NCBI RefSeq assembly: GCF_048403405.1
Contig: NZ_CP183132.1
Direction: 5' to 3' (one strand)
DNA from: Escherichia coli
GTDB lineage: Bacteria; Pseudomonadota; Gammaproteobacteria; Enterobacterales; Enterobacteriaceae
Length of the DNA: 6,055 bases
This document shows, piece after piece, positions 1 through 6,055 of the stretch. Within the stretch, counting starts at the first letter, position 1; each line of letters opens with the position of its first letter. A program made the translations under genes and the position numbers. Under the pieces are notes generated by a model, which ran no database searches, was not told the DNA's origin, and was given only the letters and a program-made list of their open reading frames with translations.

Positions 1-2
1 TC

Positions 3-31
3 TTGAGATCCTTTTTTTCTGCGCGTAATCT
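3..31 (+). promoter_or_regulatory. RNA II (primer RNA) promoter: -35 TTGAGA (3-8), 17-bp spacer, -10 TAATCT (26-31)
   Basis: Seen in sequence: hexamers with 17-bp spacing about 7 nt upstream of the predicted RNA II 5' end. Established knowledge: the region matches, from memory, the RNA II promoter of ColE1/pMB1 replicons (pBR322 ...ttgagatcctttttttctgcgcgtaatctgctgc...). Confidence 0.6.
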
Positions 32-37
32 GCTGCC

Positions 38-144
38 TGTAAACGAAAAAACCGCCTTGCAGGGCGGTTTGATCGAAGGTTAAGTCAGCTTGCAGACTGC
101 TTAACCAGGTAACTGTCTTATGCGAGACGAGTCACCAAAATTGT
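38..144 (-). ncRNA. RNAI: RNA I antisense copy-number control RNA (about 107 nt)
   Basis: Minus-strand transcript complementary to the 5' end of RNA II. Its 3' end coincides with a GC-rich hairpin (ccgccctgcaaggcgg) followed by a T-run on the minus strand at about 46-70, i.e. an intrinsic terminator. Boundaries by analogy with the 108-nt pBR322 RNA I. Confidence 0.7.
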
Positions 145-628
145 TCTTCTAGTGTAGCCGCACTCCGGCAGCCACTTCAAGTACTCTCTAAATATCTCGC
201 ACATGACTTTTACCAATGGCTGCTGCCAGTGGCGCTTTGTGGTGTCTTTTCCGGGTTGGACCCAAGAGAACAGTTACCGGAGAAGGCGCAGCAGTCGGGC
301 TGAACGGGGGGTTCCTGCATACAGCCCAGCCCGGAGCGAACTGCCTAAGTCGCCCCGAGATACCAGAAGACGTGAGCTATGAGAAAGCGCCACGTGTCCC
401 GTAAGGGAGAAAGGCGGAAAAGGTATCCGGTAATCGATATGGCGGGAACGTGGGGGCGCAGGAGGGAGCGATTCACCGGAAACGGTGATGATCTTTAAGC
501 CACGTCGGGTTTCGCCACCGCTGGCGGATTTCATGGTTGAGCCGCAAGGCTCCCACAGATGCACCGAAAAAGTGTCTGTTTTGTGAAGTCCGTCAGGGGG
601 GCGGAGCCTATGGAAAAAGCGCCTCCGG
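39..628 (+). ncRNA. RNAII: RNA II pre-primer transcript of a ColE1-type origin; 3' end (RNA-DNA transition) approximate
   Basis: Start placed at G39 by analogy with the pBR322 RNA II start (GCAAAC; here GTAAAC). The downstream sequence is collinear with the ColE1/pMB1 primer region, including ...gtcaggggggcggagcctatggaaaaa... just before the expected transition point. End not determined precisely. Confidence 0.65.
151..180 (-). promoter_or_regulatory. RNA I promoter: -35 TTGAAG (complement of 175-180), 17-bp spacer, -10 TACACT (complement of 151-156)
   Basis: Seen in sequence on the minus strand; the spacing and hexamers resemble the pBR322 RNA I promoter as I recall it. Confidence 0.55.
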
Positions 629-650
629 CGCGGCCTTTCCCGGGGTTTCG
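585..650 (+). other. oriV: approximate RNA II to DNA transition region of the ColE1-type origin
   Basis: Lies about 550-600 nt downstream of the RNA II start and contains ...ctatggaaaaagcgcctccggcgcggcctttcc..., homologous to the pBR322 origin segment (...tatggaaaaacgccagcaacgcggcc...). No Rep protein gene is present, consistent with host Pol I / RNase H priming. Confidence 0.55.
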
Positions 651-849
651 TTTTTTGCGTACATGTTCTTTCCTGGTTTATCCCCGGGTTCTGTGGATAA
701 CAGGGTTAGCGTTTTTGAGAAAGGAGAGTCCGCTCGCCGCAGCCGAACGACCGAGCGTAGCGAGTCAGTGAGCGAGGAAGCGGAAGAGCGCCTGAACTGG
801 CATTTTCTCCTTACGCATCTGTGCGGCATTTCACACCGGACATGGCGCA

Positions 850-915
850 CTTTTCATACAATCCGCACTGATGCCGAATGGTTAAGCCAGTATACACTCC
901 GCTATCGCTACGTGA
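850..915 (-). other. bom/oriT-like region (origin of transfer with the relaxase nic site), approximate
   Basis: The sequence ...tgatgccgaatggttaagccagtatacactccgctatcgctacgtgactgg... is near-identical to the pBR322 bom region (...tgatgccgcatagttaagccagtatacactcc...) read on the opposite strand. It sits between oriV and rom as in pMB1/ColE1. Exact nic position not determined. Confidence 0.45.
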
Positions 916-1035
916 CTGGGTCAGGGCTTCGCCCCGACACCCCAAAGGTCAACGGCCTGACGCGCCCTGGCGGGCTTGTCTGCTCCCGGCATCCGCTCAC
1001 AGACAAGCTGTGACCGTCTCCGGGAGCTGCATGTG

Positions 1036-1227
1036 TCAGCGGTTTTCACCGTCATCCCCGAAGCGTGCGAGGCAACTGCGGTAAAGCTCATCGGCGTGGT
1101 CGTGAAGCGATTCACAGATGTCTGCCTGTTCATCCGCGTCCAGTTCGTTGAGCTTCTCCAGCAGCGTTAATGTCTGGCCTCTGATGAAGCGGGCCATGTT
1201 AAGGGCGGTTTTTTCCTGTTTGGTCAC
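1036..1227 (-). CDS. rom: Rom/Rop, the RNA I - RNA II pairing modulator (63 aa, GTG start)
   Basis: The minus-strand ORF 1036-1299 contains VTKQEKTALNMARFIRGQTLTLLEKLNELDADEQADICESLHDHADELYRSCLARFGDDGENR, near-identical to pBR322 Rop as I recall it (MTKQEKTALNMARFIRSQ...GDDGENL). The true start is the GTG at complement 1225-1227, as in pBR322, not the upstream ATG of the 87-aa ORF. Confidence 0.9.
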   Translation of the reverse strand: MTKQEKTALNMARFIRGQTLTLLEKLNELDADEQADICESLHDHADELYRSCLARFGDDGENR

Positions 1228-1258
1228 TGATGCCTCCGTGTAAGGGGGGGTTCTGTTC

Positions 1259-1615
1259 ATGGGGGTAATGATACCGATGAAACGCGAGAGGATGCTCACG
1301 ATACGGGTTACTGATGATGAACATGCCCGGTTACTGGAACGCTGTGAGGGTAAACAACTGGCGGTATGGATGCGGCGGGTCTGCCTGGGTGAGCCGGTTG
1401 CCCGTTCCGGGAAGCTGCCGACACTGGCACCGCCGTTACTGCGTCAGCTGGCCGCCATCGGGAATAACCTTAACCAGACAGCGAGGAAGGTGAACAGCGG
1501 GCAGTGGTCTTCCGGTGACCGGGTTCAGGTGGTGGCCGCACTGATGGCCATCGGGGATGAGCTGCGCCGGCTGCGTCTGGCGGTCAGGGAACAGGGGGCG
1601 CGGGATGATAGTTAA
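1259..1615 (+). CDS. mbeC: MbeC/MobC-type relaxosome accessory protein
   Basis: The translation (...MLTIRVTDDEHARLLERCEGKQLAVWMRRVCLGEPVARSGKLPTLAPPLLRQLAAIGNNLNQTARKVNSGQW...) matches ColE1-family MbeC; the truncated homologous stretch follows rop in pBR322. Strong SD (aaggggggg, about 8 nt) precedes ATG 1259; alternative in-frame starts at 1277 and 1292 would give 112 or 107 aa. The stop overlaps the mbeA start. Confidence 0.75.
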   Translation: MGVMIPMKRERMLTIRVTDDEHARLLERCEGKQLAVWMRRVCLGEPVARSGKLPTLAPPLLRQLAAIGNNLNQTARKVNSGQWSSGDRVQVVAALMAIGDELRRLRLAVREQGARDDS

Positions 1616-3170
1616 GTTTCATGCCAGGGGAAAAGGTGGTGGCAGTGGTCCGGTTGATTACCTGCTGGGAAGGGAGCGTAACCGGGAAGGGGCAACGGTG
1701 CTTCAGGGGAATCCGGAAGAGGTCCGGGAACTCATCGATGCCACGCCATTTGCGAAGAAATACACGTCAGGTGTTCTGTCGTTCGCGGAGAAGGAGCTGC
1801 CGCCTGGAGGGCGTGAAAAAGTGATGGCGAGCTTTGAGCGTGTACTGATGCCCGGTCTCGAGAAAAATCAGTACAGCATCCTGTGGGTGGAGCACCAGGA
1901 CAAGGGACGGCTTGAGCTGAATTTTGTCATTCCGAACATGGAGCTACAGACCGGAAAACGCCTCCAGCCGTACTACGACCGGGCAGACAGGCCGAGAATT
2001 GATGCCTGGCAGACGCTGGTGAATCACCATTACGGTCTGCATGACCCCAACGCCCCGGAGAACCGCCGGACGCTGACCCTTCCTGATAACCTGCCGGAAA
2101 CGAAACAGGCGCTTGCTGAGGGCGTCACACGCGGGATAGACGCGCTTTACCATGCCGGAGAGATAAAAGGCCGTCAGGATGTGATTCAGGCGCTCACAGA
2201 GGCGGGGCTTGAAGTGGTCAGGGTGACGCGAAGCAGTATCAGCATTGCAGACCCGAACGGCGGGAGGAATATCAGACTGAAAGGAGCGTTTTATGAGCAA
2301 TCTTTTACAGACGGGCGCGGAGTTCGAGAAAAAGCTGAAAGAGAGAGCCGAATCTACAGAGAAAATGCTGAACGACGAGTTCAGGAAGCTCGAAGAATCT
2401 GTAAACAGGGAACTGACCTCAAACGAATCTTTAATCAGGAACGCTATCAACGACCATACAACAGCCCTGAAAGAACTGCTGGAGAGGTATCAGAAAACGA
2501 CCGTCGATACGATGGACGCGCACTGGAAAACCGTACTGAAAATGAGCGTGAAACGCTGGCTGTGGCTGATTATCGTCTCAGTACTGATGTTTGCCACGAC
2601 CGGGAGTCTGCTGTGGTACCAGGGCATGAAGATAAACGCGAATATGAATATTCTCCGCGAGCAGAAAGAGAGTCTGGAGAAGCTGAACGCGAAGACATGG
2701 GGCGTGCGTTATCACGAGGACAGCAACGGACGTTTTCTGGTGTTGCCGAAGGGGATGAAAGCCGAAACGAACTGGACGAAGGACAACGGCAAACTGAACG
2801 CAGTGAGACTGGTGCAGGAGTGACAGAGCATGACGGAGCTGGAAAGACATTTGCTGAACGCATTAGAGCAACTGCAACAGGACTATATGCAGCGGCTGAA
2901 CGAATGGGAGAACGCCTTCGTGGAATTGCAGAAAATGTTTTCGCTTACGCAACGGGACAACGCGATGCTGAACGGGCGAGTCATGCAGTTGAGTCAGCAG
3001 GTGCAGCACTTGAGCGAGCGGACAGAACGCTTGAGCCAGTTATACAGCGAGAACAGGAGATAAGGGATGAACGGCTGATGCAGGAACGCGAACATGAGTT
3101 ATCTCTGGAGCGGGAGCGTCAGCCGGAAATCCAGGAGCGGACACTGGATGGCCCTTCGCTGGGATGGTGA
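1605..3170 (+). CDS. mbeA: MbeA relaxase (MOB-HEN family), 521 aa
   Basis: N-terminus MIVKFHARGKGGGSGPVDYLLG... contains the catalytic Tyr19 and the HEN motif (H97, E104, N106 in ...WVEHQDKGRLELNFVIPN...) described for ColE1 MbeA. SD agggggcg lies 5-6 nt upstream of ATG 1605. The longer 537-aa ORF from 1557 is an upstream extension running through the end of mbeC. Confidence 0.9.
   Translation: MIVKFHARGKGGGSGPVDYLLGRERNREGATVLQGNPEEVRELIDATPFAKKYTSGVLSFAEKELPPGGREKVMASFERVLMPGLEKNQYSILWVEHQDKGRLELNFVIPNMELQTGKRLQPYYDRADRPRIDAWQTLVNHHYGLHDPNAPENRRTLTLPDNLPETKQALAEGVTRGIDALYHAGEIKGRQDVIQALTEAGLEVVRVTRSSISIADPNGGRNIRLKGAFYEQSFTDGRGVREKAERESRIYRENAERRVQEARRICKQGTDLKRIFNQERYQRPYNSPERTAGEVSENDRRYDGRALENRTENERETLAVADYRLSTDVCHDRESAVVPGHEDKREYEYSPRAERESGEAEREDMGRALSRGQQRTFSGVAEGDESRNELDEGQRQTERSETGAGVTEHDGAGKTFAERIRATATGLYAAAERMGERLRGIAENVFAYATGQRDAERASHAVESAGAALERADRTLEPVIQREQEIRDERLMQEREHELSLERERQPEIQERTLDGPSLGW
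2293..2823 (+). CDS. mbeB: MbeB mobilization protein (176 aa), nested in a different frame inside mbeA
   Basis: ORF with a good SD (aaggag, 6 nt upstream of ATG 2293) and one hydrophobic segment (WLWLIIVSVLMFATTGSLLWY). The nested position inside mbeA matches the ColE1 mbe operon. Confidence 0.8.
   Translation: MSNLLQTGAEFEKKLKERAESTEKMLNDEFRKLEESVNRELTSNESLIRNAINDHTTALKELLERYQKTTVDTMDAHWKTVLKMSVKRWLWLIIVSVLMFATTGSLLWYQGMKINANMNILREQKESLEKLNAKTWGVRYHEDSNGRFLVLPKGMKAETNWTKDNGKLNAVRLVQE
2830..3063 (+). CDS. mbeD: MbeD mobilization/entry-exclusion protein (77 aa), nested inside the 3' part of mbeA
   Basis: ORF immediately after mbeB, with SD aggag about 9 nt upstream of ATG 2830; its position matches mbeD of the ColE1 family. 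Product inferred from gene order and overlap, not from recalled protein sequence. Confidence 0.65.
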   Translation: MTELERHLLNALEQLQQDYMQRLNEWENAFVELQKMFSLTQRDNAMLNGRVMQLSQQVQHLSERTERLSQLYSENRR

Positions 3171-3232
3171 AACCATGAAAAATGACGTGTTCAGTGGATT
3201 AAGGCGGGCTAATGTGGCCTGTAGCATCTGGT

Positions 3233-3250
3233 TGCATAGGTATTCATGCG
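3233..3250. promoter_or_regulatory. Putative ArgR box within the cer accessory region
   Basis: TGCATAGGTATTCATG resembles the ARG-box consensus (TNTGAAT-4W-ATTCANA) with mismatches and lies about 100 bp upstream of the XerC arm, the expected position in cer-type sites. Confidence 0.4.
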
Positions 3251-3346
3251 GTTAAAATTTATCAGGTGCGATCGCGGCAGTTTTTCGGGTGGTTTGTTGC
3301 CATTTTTACCTGTCTGCTGCCGTGATCGCACCGAACGCGTTTTGGC

Positions 3347-3375
3347 GGTGCGTACAATGCGACGTTATGGTAAAT
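3347..3375 (+). other. XerC/XerD recombination core: GGTGCGTACAA (XerC arm) - TGCGACG (central region) - TTATGGTAAAT (XerD arm)
   Basis: Seen in sequence. Both 11-bp arms are identical to those I recall for ColE1 cer; the central region is different and 7 bp long here. Confidence 0.75.
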
Positions 3376-3465
3376 GGAGCGGATTTTCAGGAAGGAGTGA
3401 TACTAACAACTCGAACACTGTGCAAATAATGATTTTTTTAAAATATCGGTAACGATAATAAATTA

Positions 3466-3503
3466 TTTCGTTTTACGCCGGTAATAAATATAATGTAGTT
3501 TCA
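3466..3503 (+). promoter_or_regulatory. Candidate sigma70 promoter for the cargo operon (-10 TATAAT at 3489-3494; weak -35; AT-rich upstream)
   Basis: A perfect TATAAT hexamer lies about 50 nt upstream of ATG 3544 in an AT-rich tract (taataaattatttcgttttacgccggtaataaatataatg). No good -35 at 17-bp spacing; a second TATATA at 3505-3510 is also possible. Confidence 0.3.
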
Positions 3504-3543
3504 GTATATAAAAAAATATATGAGGTGTCTTGTGGGAGCTTTC

Positions 3544-4596
3544 ATGAATCTTCAACAACGTATAAATAAACTACCACAATTATCATCCAGTTTTTCATTT
3601 GGAAAAGATATTGATAATATTCATTCATTTATCTTTAACGAAACTTCTAAAGATAAAATTGAAGATTTACTAAGAAAATGGGTGTCAGGCAATCAGCCCT
3701 GTGTATTTGGTAAATTGGCAAGCAAGAAAATTAAAGGGCTTGATTTCCATTTATCTATTGTAAATAGCCCCCAACTATATAATGATGATGGTCATTTGTT
3801 TGATTTTTTGCGTAATGAAAGAGTTCGTTTTAAAGAACGCGCAAGAAGAGGAGAGGTCAGTGCGCATCTCATTTATTTTATTCATCCACAACTTGCCTTT
3901 GCTCGTCCATCAGAAGAGTTAGTGGACATACAAAAATATATTTGTTCGCTGCATATGCCAGAGTGCTATCCAATAAAAGAGGATGTTATTTATACTGAAA
4001 GCGTACCATTTCAGGATAAAGATGGGCTAAAAATATATAAGGCTGGTGTTAATGTTTTTTACTCTTCTGCTCATAGAACAAGAAATCATGATAGAAGAAT
4101 ACCAGGGGGAATACTTATTTCTGTAAATGCCCCGGGGCATTTTATGAGGCTGGCGATAGAAAAAGGTTTCTATAAAGATCAAGAACAAGCGTTAGCGGAT
4201 ATTCGTAACATGACTATTCAGTCTGTTGGTAAGGGTGGGTATTCACATCCGGAAGGGATTTCTACAACATGGCATTCAGAATCTAATTTGGATCGTTTTG
4301 GATGCCCAGTGCACACCGGTAATAGTTCTTATTACAGCGGTTTTTATCATACTGATGTATTAATTCCAGGAGAATTAACTAAGGATGAAAGATTGCTCCA
4401 TGAAATAGAAAATAGTGATCCAATGATCTTCAACTGGAATGTATTGTTTTATGTTTCATTAGAAGAGTTTCCTATAGATGATCCTTATTATGGAGAGTTT
4501 ATTGGTATTCCTGTAGATGATGCATCTATGTTTTTTAACTCCTTTCAACCAAGGAAATTTGAAAACAAACCCCTTTATGAGAAAGAGGATGATTAA
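3544..4596 (+). CDS. Hypothetical soluble protein, 350 aa, family not recognised (first gene of the AT-rich cargo operon)
   Basis: Long ORF (track 3520-4596) in AT-rich DNA. ATG 3544 is preferred over ATG 3520 because of the SD gggag 5 nt upstream. No signal peptide or hydrophobic helices evident. Conserved-looking segments include NAPGHFMRLAIEKGFY and DRFGCPVHTGNSSYYSGFYHTDVLIPGE. Confidence 0.75.
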   Translation: MNLQQRINKLPQLSSSFSFGKDIDNIHSFIFNETSKDKIEDLLRKWVSGNQPCVFGKLASKKIKGLDFHLSIVNSPQLYNDDGHLFDFLRNERVRFKERARRGEVSAHLIYFIHPQLAFARPSEELVDIQKYICSLHMPECYPIKEDVIYTESVPFQDKDGLKIYKAGVNVFYSSAHRTRNHDRRIPGGILISVNAPGHFMRLAIEKGFYKDQEQALADIRNMTIQSVGKGGYSHPEGISTTWHSESNLDRFGCPVHTGNSSYYSGFYHTDVLIPGELTKDERLLHEIENSDPMIFNWNVLFYVSLEEFPIDDPYYGEFIGIPVDDASMFFNSFQPRKFENKPLYEKEDD

Positions 4597-4597
4597 T

Positions 4598-5464
4598 ATG
4601 ATTAAAGGAATGCTTTTTGCTTTTTTAGCAGCGTTCTCATGGGGGGCAGCTATCGTAATGAGCAAAAAAGGAGTTGAAGAACTAGATGCCGGAGGGGTGT
4701 TTTTCTGGCAGATTTGTAGTGCAGTAATACTATCTTGGATAGTTCTTTTTATAAAAAGAAAAAAACTCCCATTAAACTCAAAAGCGATACTTGCTTATGC
4801 GACAGGCGTTTTTGAACCATTCTTAGCGTATACTTTTACACTCTACGGACTTTATTTTATTTCAGCAGGAAGCGCATCAATTATTTTTTCACTTGAATCA
4901 GTGTTTATATTGGTGTTGTCTGTTCTTATTTGCTCAGTTAAAATTAATTCCCCGCAATATTTTATATTGTTCCTTATAGGTGCAATTGTTGGCAGTATTT
5001 TGGTAGCCTTGCCAGACATCAGTAATGGATCGAATAATATTGTTGGATATTGTCTTGTTGTTGCCGGTGTGTTATCGGCAGCATTTTATGTTGTTATATC
5101 GTCTCGCCTTATTAAATCGTTTGAGCCTATCACATTATTGAGCGGACAGTTGACATTCTCCCTTATACTGTCATCGCTCTTTATTTTTATATCTAAATCA
5201 TCAATTTATCTTCCGTTGGAATCCGTGATTATTGTTTTTTCATCTGGAATATTACAATATTTTTTAGCTTTTTGTTTTTACTTGAACTCCTTGCGTTGGC
5301 TCCCAGTTCATTTGGCAGGGATAATGTTGTACTTTATTCCGCTAGTTGCATTATTTTTGTCATGGTTGTTTTTGGATGAACAATTCACATTCTTACAGGG
5401 GGTAGGATTTATTGTAACTGTGCTAAGTGTATATTTTCTTAACAGAAAATACTCAGAGGAGTAA
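4598..5464 (+). CDS. DMT-superfamily (EamA-like) integral membrane transporter, 288 aa, about 10 predicted TM helices
   Basis: About ten hydrophobic segments of 18-23 residues in a 5+5 arrangement, with an N-terminal LFAFLAAFSWGAAIVMSKKG typical of EamA-domain proteins. Start ATG 4598 has SD aagagga 8 nt upstream and lies 2 nt after the stop of the upstream gene; the track ORF from 4517 is an N-terminal over-extension. Confidence 0.8.
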   Translation: MIKGMLFAFLAAFSWGAAIVMSKKGVEELDAGGVFFWQICSAVILSWIVLFIKRKKLPLNSKAILAYATGVFEPFLAYTFTLYGLYFISAGSASIIFSLESVFILVLSVLICSVKINSPQYFILFLIGAIVGSILVALPDISNGSNNIVGYCLVVAGVLSAAFYVVISSRLIKSFEPITLLSGQLTFSLILSSLFIFISKSSIYLPLESVIIVFSSGILQYFLAFCFYLNSLRWLPVHLAGIMLYFIPLVALFLSWLFLDEQFTFLQGVGFIVTVLSVYFLNRKYSEE

Positions 5465-5633
5465 CATTCTGTTCAGGATTGCCCCCCGGCCTCCATCGAT
5501 ACCGTGCCAAATGCACGTAAAAAACGGGAGCGTTTCTGGTGTCGGAATGTAACCAAGGGGGTCAGAGGCGCGCTAAAACGCTCTCAGGGGAGTCAAATAG
5601 AGACGTTTGTAACAAAAAGATCAAAGGATCCTC

Positions 5634-5662
5634 TTGAGATCCTTTTTTTCTGCGCGTAATCT
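5634..5662 (+). promoter_or_regulatory. RNA II promoter, second copy of 3-31 in the terminal overlap
   Basis: Identical sequence at offset 5631. This copy shows the true context on the circle: the promoter lies about 170 bp downstream of the cargo transporter gene. Confidence 0.6.
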
Positions 5663-5668
5663 GCTGCC

Positions 5669-5775
5669 TGTAAACGAAAAAACCGCCTTGCAGGGCGGTT
5701 TGATCGAAGGTTAAGTCAGCTTGCAGACTGCTTAACCAGGTAACTGTCTTATGCGAGACGAGTCACCAAAATTGT
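5669..5775 (-). ncRNA. RNAI: RNA I, second copy of 38-144 in the terminal overlap
   Basis: Identical sequence at offset 5631. Confidence 0.7.
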
Positions 5776-6055
5776 TCTTCTAGTGTAGCCGCACTCCGGC
5801 AGCCACTTCAAGTACTCTCTAAATATCTCGCACATGACTTTTACCAATGGCTGCTGCCAGTGGCGCTTTGTGGTGTCTTTTCCGGGTTGGACCCAAGAGA
5901 ACAGTTACCGGAGAAGGCGCAGCAGTCGGGCTGAACGGGGGGTTCCTGCATACAGCCCAGCCCGGAGCGAACTGCCTAAGTCGCCCCGAGATACCAGAAG
6001 ACGTGAGCTATGAGAAAGCGCCACGTGTCCCGTAAGGGAGAAAGGCGGAAAAGGT
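5670..6055 (+). ncRNA. RNAII: RNA II, 5' part, second copy of 39-424 truncated by the window end
   Basis: Identical sequence at offset 5631. Confidence 0.65.

Follow-up and report, generated by a model that had tools for sequence, protein, structure and literature searches.

A ColE1-type mobilization module with mbeB and mbeD nested in the relaxase gene mbeA on a common 5,631-bp enterobacterial plasmid

The stretch of DNA considered here (the window, 6,055 nt from Escherichia coli, contig NZ_CP183132.1) is a circular plasmid of 5,631 bp, present in full and read on for another 424 nt beyond its own start, positions 1-424 being identical to 5632-6055. The plasmid carries what is, with a probability that we put at about 90%, a complete and undamaged ColE1-type mobilization module of the MOBP5 (MOB-HEN) class, made up of an origin of transfer (oriT), the accessory gene mbeC, the relaxase gene mbeA, and the genes mbeB and mbeD, which are nested inside mbeA in another reading frame. 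Patterns of open frames, translation signals and substitutions further argue that the products of all three overlapping genes are maintained by selection. The module itself is a known system on a known and common plasmid, with a biology established since the 1980s to 2000s, and its dual coding, noted as known for ColE1 in a preliminary description of this sequence, is real but indeed textbook material. What is modestly new is the quantitative evidence for the maintenance of both frames, together with a cassette-like variable block that lies over a predicted disordered linker of MbeA.

The relaxase gene, mbeC and the origin of transfer

Frameshifts and premature stop codons, which would speak against an intact relaxase gene, were looked for in mbeA and none was found: the gene runs from an ATG at 1605 to a TGA at 3168-3170 through 521 codons. 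The catalytic residues that the preliminary description had listed can be read directly in the translation, with Y19, the motif I tyrosine of MbeA, in the string GPVDYLLG and H97, E104 and N106 in HQDKGRLELNF (residues 97-107). The HEN motif, in which H, E and N replace the three histidines of motif III, is defined in the literature (PMC12857230, PMC9282650), and Y19, SF and HQD-x4-ELNF motifs have been named for the mobC-mobA/BD relaxases (PMC9282650); across 13 lineages Y19, S59, F60, H97, D99, E104, N106 and F107 of MbeA are invariant. The NCBIfam model NF047848 (relax_MbeA_E1) matches MbeA over residues 1-513 with 900.3 bits against a cut-off of 500, and the Pfam family PF03432 (Relaxase) matches it at 4.2e-07, with 30.7 bits against 24.6.

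Alignment with the ColE1 proteins gives 100% identity for MbeC, which has the same RefSeq protein accession in both plasmids (WP_000955999.1), 91% for MbeD (77 aa in each), 78% for MbeA (521 against 517 aa) and 52% for MbeB (176 against 172 aa), with the identity of MbeA rising to about 99% over residues 1-229. The full length that had been ascribed to mbeC, mbeB and mbeD holds as well, at 107, 176 and 77 aa. The gene mbeC is located directly upstream of mbeA, and the end of mbeC with its stop overlaps the start of mbeA by 11 nt, an arrangement that has the appearance of a translational-coupling layout, while the region upstream of mbeC is 95-97% identical to that of ColE1. The module had been placed at 1605-3170, an interval that does contain mbeA but neither oriT nor, save for the 11-nt overlap, mbeC, both of which are located upstream of it.

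The bom/oriT-like region, likewise expected, is found where ColE1 has it: in one collinear alignment, positions 841-920 are 97% and positions 901-960 are 82% identical to ColE1. This region holds, on the minus strand, the ColE1-type nick sequence 5'-GTATACTGG CTTAAC-3', which is the complement of 881-895; the same strand reads GTATACTGGCTTAAC inside 841-920, in cis to the mob genes. The nick sequence is adjoined by an imperfect inverted repeat at 919-937 (GGTCAGGGC-TTC-GCCCCGAC), the hairpin of which is present in the centroid fold, with an oriT hairpin folding energy no better than that of shuffled sequence (z = -0.36). The strand of oriT and the exact position of the nick would be those of ColE1, from which they are taken; in ColE1 itself the nick presumably falls within CTGG/CTTAA on that strand.

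The structure of MbeA was modeled with AlphaFold2 (AF2) on a 13-sequence alignment. The model has a mean predicted local distance difference test score (pLDDT) of 56.5, with values of 55-87 in the N-terminal domain, and the parts into which it divides are listed in Table 1.

The nested genes mbeB and mbeD

The nesting of mbeB and mbeD inside mbeA was claimed correctly, although the alternative frames turn out to be one and the same: both genes occupy the +1 frame, with the mbeB stop and 6 nt between them. For comparison, 16 lineages were assembled from the window, ColE1 and 14 plasmids picked to span the matches of a tblastn search with MbeB, such that the MbeB proteins compared are 25-97% identical to that of the window. 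In all 16 of these lineages the mbeB start is found in the +1 frame at position +688 of mbeA, and mbeD comes next in the same frame, the two being contained in an mbeA of 484-532 codons.

Both nested genes are preceded by putative translation signals. The mbeB ATG is preceded at a distance of 6-8 nt by AGGAG, GGGAG or AGGGG in every lineage, a conservation that could in part be due to the MbeA residues RLKGA encoded at that place. At the other end of mbeB, 10 of the 16 lineages have GGAG joined directly to the stop codon (TGA, TAA or TAG), and mbeB and mbeD are 0-6 nt apart in 14 of the 16 (0-60 nt over all 16); the AGGAG-TGA of the window can be read as a probable junction of translational coupling for the two genes. 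A 19-residue hydrophobic segment (mean Kyte-Doolittle value 1.7-2.9) is present in every MbeB of the 16 lineages, and it is still kept among MbeB types that are 24-75% identical to each other; no hydrophobic segment of this type is found in MbeD or in the overlapping segment of MbeA. MbeB has no NCBIfam match. The mbeD gene, which overlaps the predicted C-terminal helices of MbeA, has been credited with an exclusion activity (PMC2831885), described as mild and without an identified target (PMC11493245).

A further open reading frame of 53 aa, which likewise uses the +1 frame, extends across the mbeA stop at 3094-3255 on the plus strand. It sits where ColE1-type plasmids are said to carry mbeE/mobE and is at most a candidate for mbeE; frames like it are present in the ColE1 clade (shorter in ColE1 itself), with no homologue in the other lineages.

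Maintenance of both reading frames

Between the mbeB start and the mbeD stop (702-801 nt in the 16 lineages) the mbeA frame contains no stop codon in any lineage, compared with 17-29 stops in the third frame. How readily such a frame stays open was assessed by permuting synonymous codons within a gene, with proteins and codon usage kept, in 1,000 trials per lineage. Shuffling of mbeB and mbeD introduced 2.7-8.3 stops on average into the mbeA frame, which remained open in 0-2.7% of trials, and after shuffling of mbeA the two nested frames stayed open in 0-2.4% of trials, one lineage excepted (12%). The window, moreover, offers 56 single-base changes that truncate MbeA and are silent for MbeB and MbeD, and not one of them is fixed in any of the lineages. 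Judged by these sequence comparisons, the nesting is far beyond chance, and the open frames, the shuffles, the translation signals and the retained hydrophobic segment together argue that MbeA, MbeB and MbeD are all maintained by selection.

The way in which constraint is shared between the frames can be followed in the divergence at each codon position, pooled over 19 lineage pairs with 0.5%-30% divergence across the mbeB overlap. The single-coding relaxase domain displays the ordinary third-position wobble, with divergences of 0.057, 0.043 and 0.313 at mbeA positions 1, 2 and 3; the mbeB overlap is without periodicity (0.219, 0.208 and 0.202), the mbeD overlap is intermediate (0.146, 0.075 and 0.125), and the tail of mbeA beyond mbeD has a weak codon periodicity (0.30, 0.33 and 0.41). 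The three closest pairs, which are separate from one another, have 39 substitutions in the mbeB overlap, and these are distributed 22:12:5 over mbeA positions 1, 2 and 3 (chi-square p = 0.0036), which is the third > first > second codon-position pattern of mbeB, and the substitutions in the relaxase domain of the same pairs are distributed 7:8:53.

At the protein level, residues 283-410 of MbeA contain almost no invariant column, and invariant or near-invariant positions (D410, R421, G466 and A472) are found at about 410-472. The overlap segments of MbeA are rich in Arg, Glu, Gly and Ala; hydrophobic residues make up 14-19% of them, as compared with about 30% of MbeB and MbeD. High conservation of the DNA goes with the parts of MbeA that are folded in the model (the helix at 234-280 and the C-terminal helices). 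This suggests a division in which, over the predicted disordered linker, the MbeA frame is merely kept open and the MbeB frame sets the pattern of substitution.

The variable block over the MbeA linker

The hypervariable block at 2400-2820 has sharp boundaries and is 38-72% identical to ColE1 at the nucleotide level, with flanks of 88-100% identity. A conserved island within it, near 2660-2700, codes for LNAKTWGV, a motif of MbeB. The extent of the block is essentially that of the stretch of MbeA predicted to be disordered (pLDDT 25-35). By megablast, 1,028 plasmids match mbeA, 192 of them in one place with a coverage of 80% or more of the gene, and among the matches sampled below those 192 most consist of two pieces with 93-96% identity and a coverage of about 75-77%. 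The identity of MbeB proteins to that of the window is strongly bimodal, with 182 records at 95% or above, 4 at 80-95%, 50 at 60-80% and 2,672 below 60%. The picture looks like one of discrete mbeB types that are exchanged between near-identical backbones.

A possible, if rather speculative, interpretation is that the block, which takes in the membrane anchor and the C-terminal domain of MbeB, acts as an exchangeable specificity cassette. Recombination in the conserved flanks would shuffle discrete MbeB types, and the type present would determine the helper coupling proteins or secretion systems able to mobilize the plasmid, or else the related plasmids that are excluded. If this were true, its position over a part of MbeA that is disordered would let the block diversify without damage to the relaxase.

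Proposed mechanism and helper range

Given the identity with ColE1, a mechanism of transfer can be proposed that follows the work on ColE1 in what each catalytic residue does, in how the steps succeed one another and in the parts played by MbeB and MbeD. MbeC would bind oriT and assist MbeA there. The domain at the N-terminus of MbeA, in which H97, E104 and N106 would hold a metal, would cut one strand at the nick site, whereupon MbeA would become covalently attached to the DNA through Y19. A conjugative plasmid in the same cell would then export the MbeA-DNA complex through its coupling protein and type IV secretion system, with MbeB, a putative single-pass membrane protein, and MbeD, a small protein predicted to be helical, as likely accessory factors, the latter being also the one with the reported mild exclusion of related plasmids.

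The preliminary description had predicted that the plasmid is mobilizable and had named IncF, IncI and IncP plasmids as helpers. The prediction finds indirect support in the typing of the plasmid in PLSDB (MOB-suite: 'mobilizable; relaxase MOBP') and in copies in three genera, and a plasmidome study had listed the plasmid as MOBP5/ColE1-like (PMC4270462). The list of helpers is borrowed from ColE1, from which it cannot simply be carried over. The identical copies in three genera may be taken as indirect natural evidence of movement between hosts.

Transfer has been measured for two plasmids of comparable organization. The plasmid pSN11/00Kan, which has a conserved ColE1-type oriT and a mobA/B/D set of another lineage, was transferred at 0.78 with the IncP tra genes and was not transferred with F (<1e-7; Chen et al. 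2022, PMC9282650), and pSNC3-Kan was transferred with both the IncP and the F tra genes (PMC9282650). The MbeB of the window is 48% identical to that of pSN11/00Kan, and the match with pSNC3-Kan begins only at mbeD, so that the mbeB block of the window is a third type beside those two. Since this block is unlike those of the experimentally tested plasmids, the helper range is not transferable from ColE1, pSN11/00Kan or pSNC3-Kan. By its sequence the plasmid seems to have all that is needed for carriage by conjugative plasmids, and a complete set of mobilization genes would make the cargo operon mobile across enteric bacteria.

Annotation history

The genes of the module have been annotated inconsistently. 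The PLSDB feature tables of the plasmid and its relatives list MobC, MbeB and MbeD but not the relaxase, with one locus tag skipped between MobC and MbeB, whereas the current RefSeq records that were examined (NC_022662.1, NZ_CP051618.1 and NZ_CP018985.1) annotate mbeA and omit mbeB and mbeD, because the pipelines treat nested genes differently. Hanke et al. (2024) reported that 487 relaxase 'pseudogenes' in ColE1-like plasmids are misclassified open reading frames with conserved synteny with mobC, mbeB and mbeD (PMC11229322). Such inconsistent annotation of nested genes and false pseudogene flags can distort counts of mobilizable plasmids. The candidate interpretation of mbeA as a pseudogene, prompted by its absence from PLSDB, was rejected: the open reading frame is intact, RefSeq annotates mbeA, and the published reclassification points the same way (PMC11229322).

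Two database records related to the module deserve separate mention. In NZ_CP142332.1 (20,855 bp, Erwinia aphidicola) a ColE1-like plasmid of about 4.17 kb occurs five times in a head-to-tail array, with a set of MobC, MbeB, MbeD and a YadA-like gene every ~4,171 bp, and the record is either a real multimer or an assembly artefact; the Prokaryotic Genome Annotation Pipeline (PGAP) calls a 675-nt 'relaxase' in two of the copies, and at least one copy has an open mbeA of 504 codons. NZ_CP067017.1, a linear record of 1,526 bp labeled 'Anaerococcus obesiensis plasmid' and thus ascribed to a Gram-positive anaerobe, is a fragment of an enterobacterial mbeA/mbeB/mbeD region, probably by contamination or as a mis-binned contig; its MbeD is 96% identical to that of the window, and its MbeB, with 62% identity, is a third type.

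Alternative explanations

The nested genes could in principle be no genes at all but accidental open frames within a long relaxase gene, with dual coding being an annotation habit. The current RefSeq practice of annotating mbeA alone, with both nested genes omitted, would fit such a view, as would the missing NCBIfam match of MbeB and its low conservation over the whole length (about 40% mean pairwise identity). That both frames nonetheless recur at the same position in 16 of 16 lineages and are so rarely left open when mbeA is shuffled makes it extremely improbable, the more so as family matches (PF04837 at 1.1e-18, PF04899 at 4.2e-34 and NF033829 above its cut-off), a conserved Shine-Dalgarno-like motif with a stop-start coupling junction, a hydrophobic segment kept in every MbeB despite divergence, close-pair substitutions that follow the mbeB codon phase and the published exclusion activity of mbeD (PMC2831885; PMC11493245) all point to genuine genes. 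The converse position is that only the N-terminal ~230-280 residues of MbeA are real, that the open frame over mbeB and mbeD is passive, and that the layout is one of relaxase, mbeB and mbeD in series. It is very improbable, considering that the mbeA frame is free of stops in all 16 lineages against 17-29 in the third frame and survives shuffling in at most 2.7% of trials, that the 56 one-step truncations on offer were never fixed, that the invariant or near-invariant positions at ~410-472 and predicted helices with pLDDT up to 80 lie beyond the proposed end, that the NCBIfam MbeA model extends over residues 1-513, and that pseudogene calls of this kind were found to be errors (n = 487; Hanke et al. 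2024, PMC11229322). What speaks for it is that PGAP repeatedly places a short or pseudogenized relaxase beside MbeB and MbeD (the 675-nt coding sequence in Erwinia, skipped locus tags elsewhere), that MbeA 285-414 is predicted to be disordered and is almost unconserved, and that the tail beyond mbeD has the weak periodicity given above.

It may also be argued that the module is intact while the plasmid is effectively not mobilized, or is mobilized by a narrow set of helpers, and owes its spread to clonal expansion or transformation. Here the difference of the block comprising mbeB and the MbeA linker from all experimentally tested plasmids has to be considered, along with the precedent of pSN11/00Kan: although its oriT is conserved and its mobC-mobA/BD operon intact, the F tra genes did not transfer it (<1e-7), as against 0.78 by IncP (PMC9282650). 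That E. coli, Salmonella and Klebsiella from varied sources carry the same 5,631-bp sequence, that both frames are under continued purifying maintenance and that the nick region of oriT is conserved is less easily accommodated, and we consider this explanation improbable. The interpretation favored here remains that of a complete ColE1-type module in which MbeA, MbeB and MbeD are all maintained.

Several results nevertheless weigh against this interpretation or parts of it. For the HUH-endonuclease fold expected of the N-terminal domain, with the tyrosine and the metal ligands close together, a Foldseek search of the MbeA model against the PDB gave no match at E <= 0.001, the best relaxase being TraI of F in tenth place at E = 0.59, and a profile search of the PDB sequences with MbeA gave no match either; with a structural model of moderate confidence and no PDB match, the fold assignment of MbeA rests on Pfam and NCBIfam. 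A simple scan for sigma-70 consensus sequences upstream of mbeC gave no promoter on the plus strand. The 16 lineages are related and are not fully independent trials, although their MbeB types differ by 25-75% in amino-acid sequence, and the type of mbeB block found in the window is absent from the transfer-tested pSN11/00Kan and pSNC3-Kan. As to the asymmetry between the frames, it depends on the 39 substitutions of three close pairs: identity over the whole segment, at 40% for MbeB and 41% for the overlapping MbeA in 120 pairs, shows no asymmetry, and since it fails to separate the two proteins the claim rests on the small phase test. The stronger proposal that MbeB is much better conserved than the overlapping segment of MbeA was rejected on those same figures.

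The plasmid and its cargo

Over its full length the plasmid is 100% identical to pJJ1886_3 (NC_022662.1) from the E. coli sequence type 131 (ST131) strain JJ1886, which was already included among the MOBP5/ColE1-like plasmids in the ST131 plasmidome study of Lanza et al. 2014 (PMC4270462). Deposited plasmids with the same 5,631-bp sequence number more than 100 and come from E. coli, Salmonella enterica and Klebsiella pneumoniae, with humans, poultry, pigs and river water among the sources. A plasmid-specific query spanning 2400-3900 (from the end of mbeA through the cargo junction), counted at a coverage of at least 80%, was found in 115 PLSDB records and in 98 of 5,426 complete E. coli genomes (~1.8%).

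The backbone is a ColE1 replicon with RNAI (RF00106) and Rop, and the window is collinear with ColE1 (NC_001371) over positions 1 to 3375. Owing to the wrap-around, RNAI and several small open reading frames occur twice in the window. Past the mbeA stop, homology to ColE1 persists for about 200 nt more (3170-3375, 85-93% identity). It stops sharply near 3375, at the start of the low-GC cargo region, which places the junction between backbone and cargo there.

The cargo has a GC content of 34-35% against 55% in the backbone, and its two genes are the least understood part of the plasmid. The first cargo protein has no Pfam or NCBIfam match, nor does any of 34 members of its family match Pfam; the family has at least 96 unannotated homologues and an invariant Cys53. 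The protein models confidently (pLDDT 89.7, predicted template modeling score 0.90). A sequence-level link to YqcI/YcgG was considered and rejected, with 0 of the 34 members matching Pfam and no match among PDB sequences.

Table 1. Features of the window and predicted parts of their products (positions in nt of the window unless given as aa; AF2, AlphaFold2 model)
Feature	Position	Strand	Remarks
RNAI	43-143	-	RF00106, 56.5 bits vs gathering score 47
oriT/bom region	841-940	-	homology to ColE1; strand by homology
rop	1036-1227	-	PF01815, 3.3e-37; coordinates transferred from RefSeq records
mbeC (mobC)	1292-1615	+	107-aa nicking accessory protein; PF05713 (MobC) 5.3e-12, PF21983 (NikA-like) 1.2e-08
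mbeA	1605-3170	+	MOBP5/HEN relaxase, 521 aa; RefSeq 'plasmid mobilization relaxase MbeA', WP_000635805.1
MbeA N-terminal alpha/beta relaxase domain	aa ~1-229 (1-226 in AF2 model)		single-coding
MbeA helix	aa 234-280		AF2, pLDDT up to 90
MbeA segment without structure, predicted disordered linker	aa 285-414		AF2, pLDDT 25-35
MbeA C-terminal helices	aa 416-513		AF2, pLDDT up to 80
Shine-Dalgarno-like AAAGGAG	2280-2286	+	6 nt before mbeB ATG, inside mbeA coding sequence
mbeB	2293-2823	+	nested in mbeA, +1 frame; 176 aa; PF04837 (MbeB_N) 1.1e-18
MbeB conserved N-terminal domain	aa 1-52
MbeB membrane-anchor-like hydrophobic segment	aa 89-107
MbeB C-terminal domain
Hypervariable, recombinationally mosaic block	2400-2820	+	MbeB aa 37-176, MbeA aa 266-406
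AGGAG fused to mbeB stop (AGGAG-TGA)	2816-2823	+	6 nt before mbeD ATG
mbeD	2830-3063	+	nested in mbeA, +1 frame; 77 aa; PF04899 4.2e-34; NF033829, 115.5 bits vs cut-off 60
Cargo gene 1	3544-4596		family without annotation
Cargo gene 2	4598-5464		EamA/DMT transporter

Comparison with known systems

The plasmid differs from pJJ1886_3 in no position of the sequence, and annotation alone varies between releases. With ColE1 it shares the type of replicon and, in the mbe region, the gene order, the overlaps and the start of mbeB at +688 in the +1 frame, whereas the stretch 2400-2820, which covers the main part of mbeB and the central part of MbeA, is a different allele, with an MbeB that is 4 residues longer in the window; in place of the exc1/exc2 and colicin genes of ColE1, the plasmid carries its low-GC pair of cargo genes. 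pSN11/00Kan and pSNC3-Kan agree with the window in operon architecture, in the ColE1-type oriT and in the Y19, SF and HQD-x4-ELNF motifs, and differ from it in the type of their mbeB blocks. A more distant likeness to the mbeA layout is offered by RSF1010/R1162 (MOBQ), in which mobB is nested in mobA in a different frame, the relaxase there belonging to a different family, with a canonical histidine motif III and a C-terminal primase fusion.

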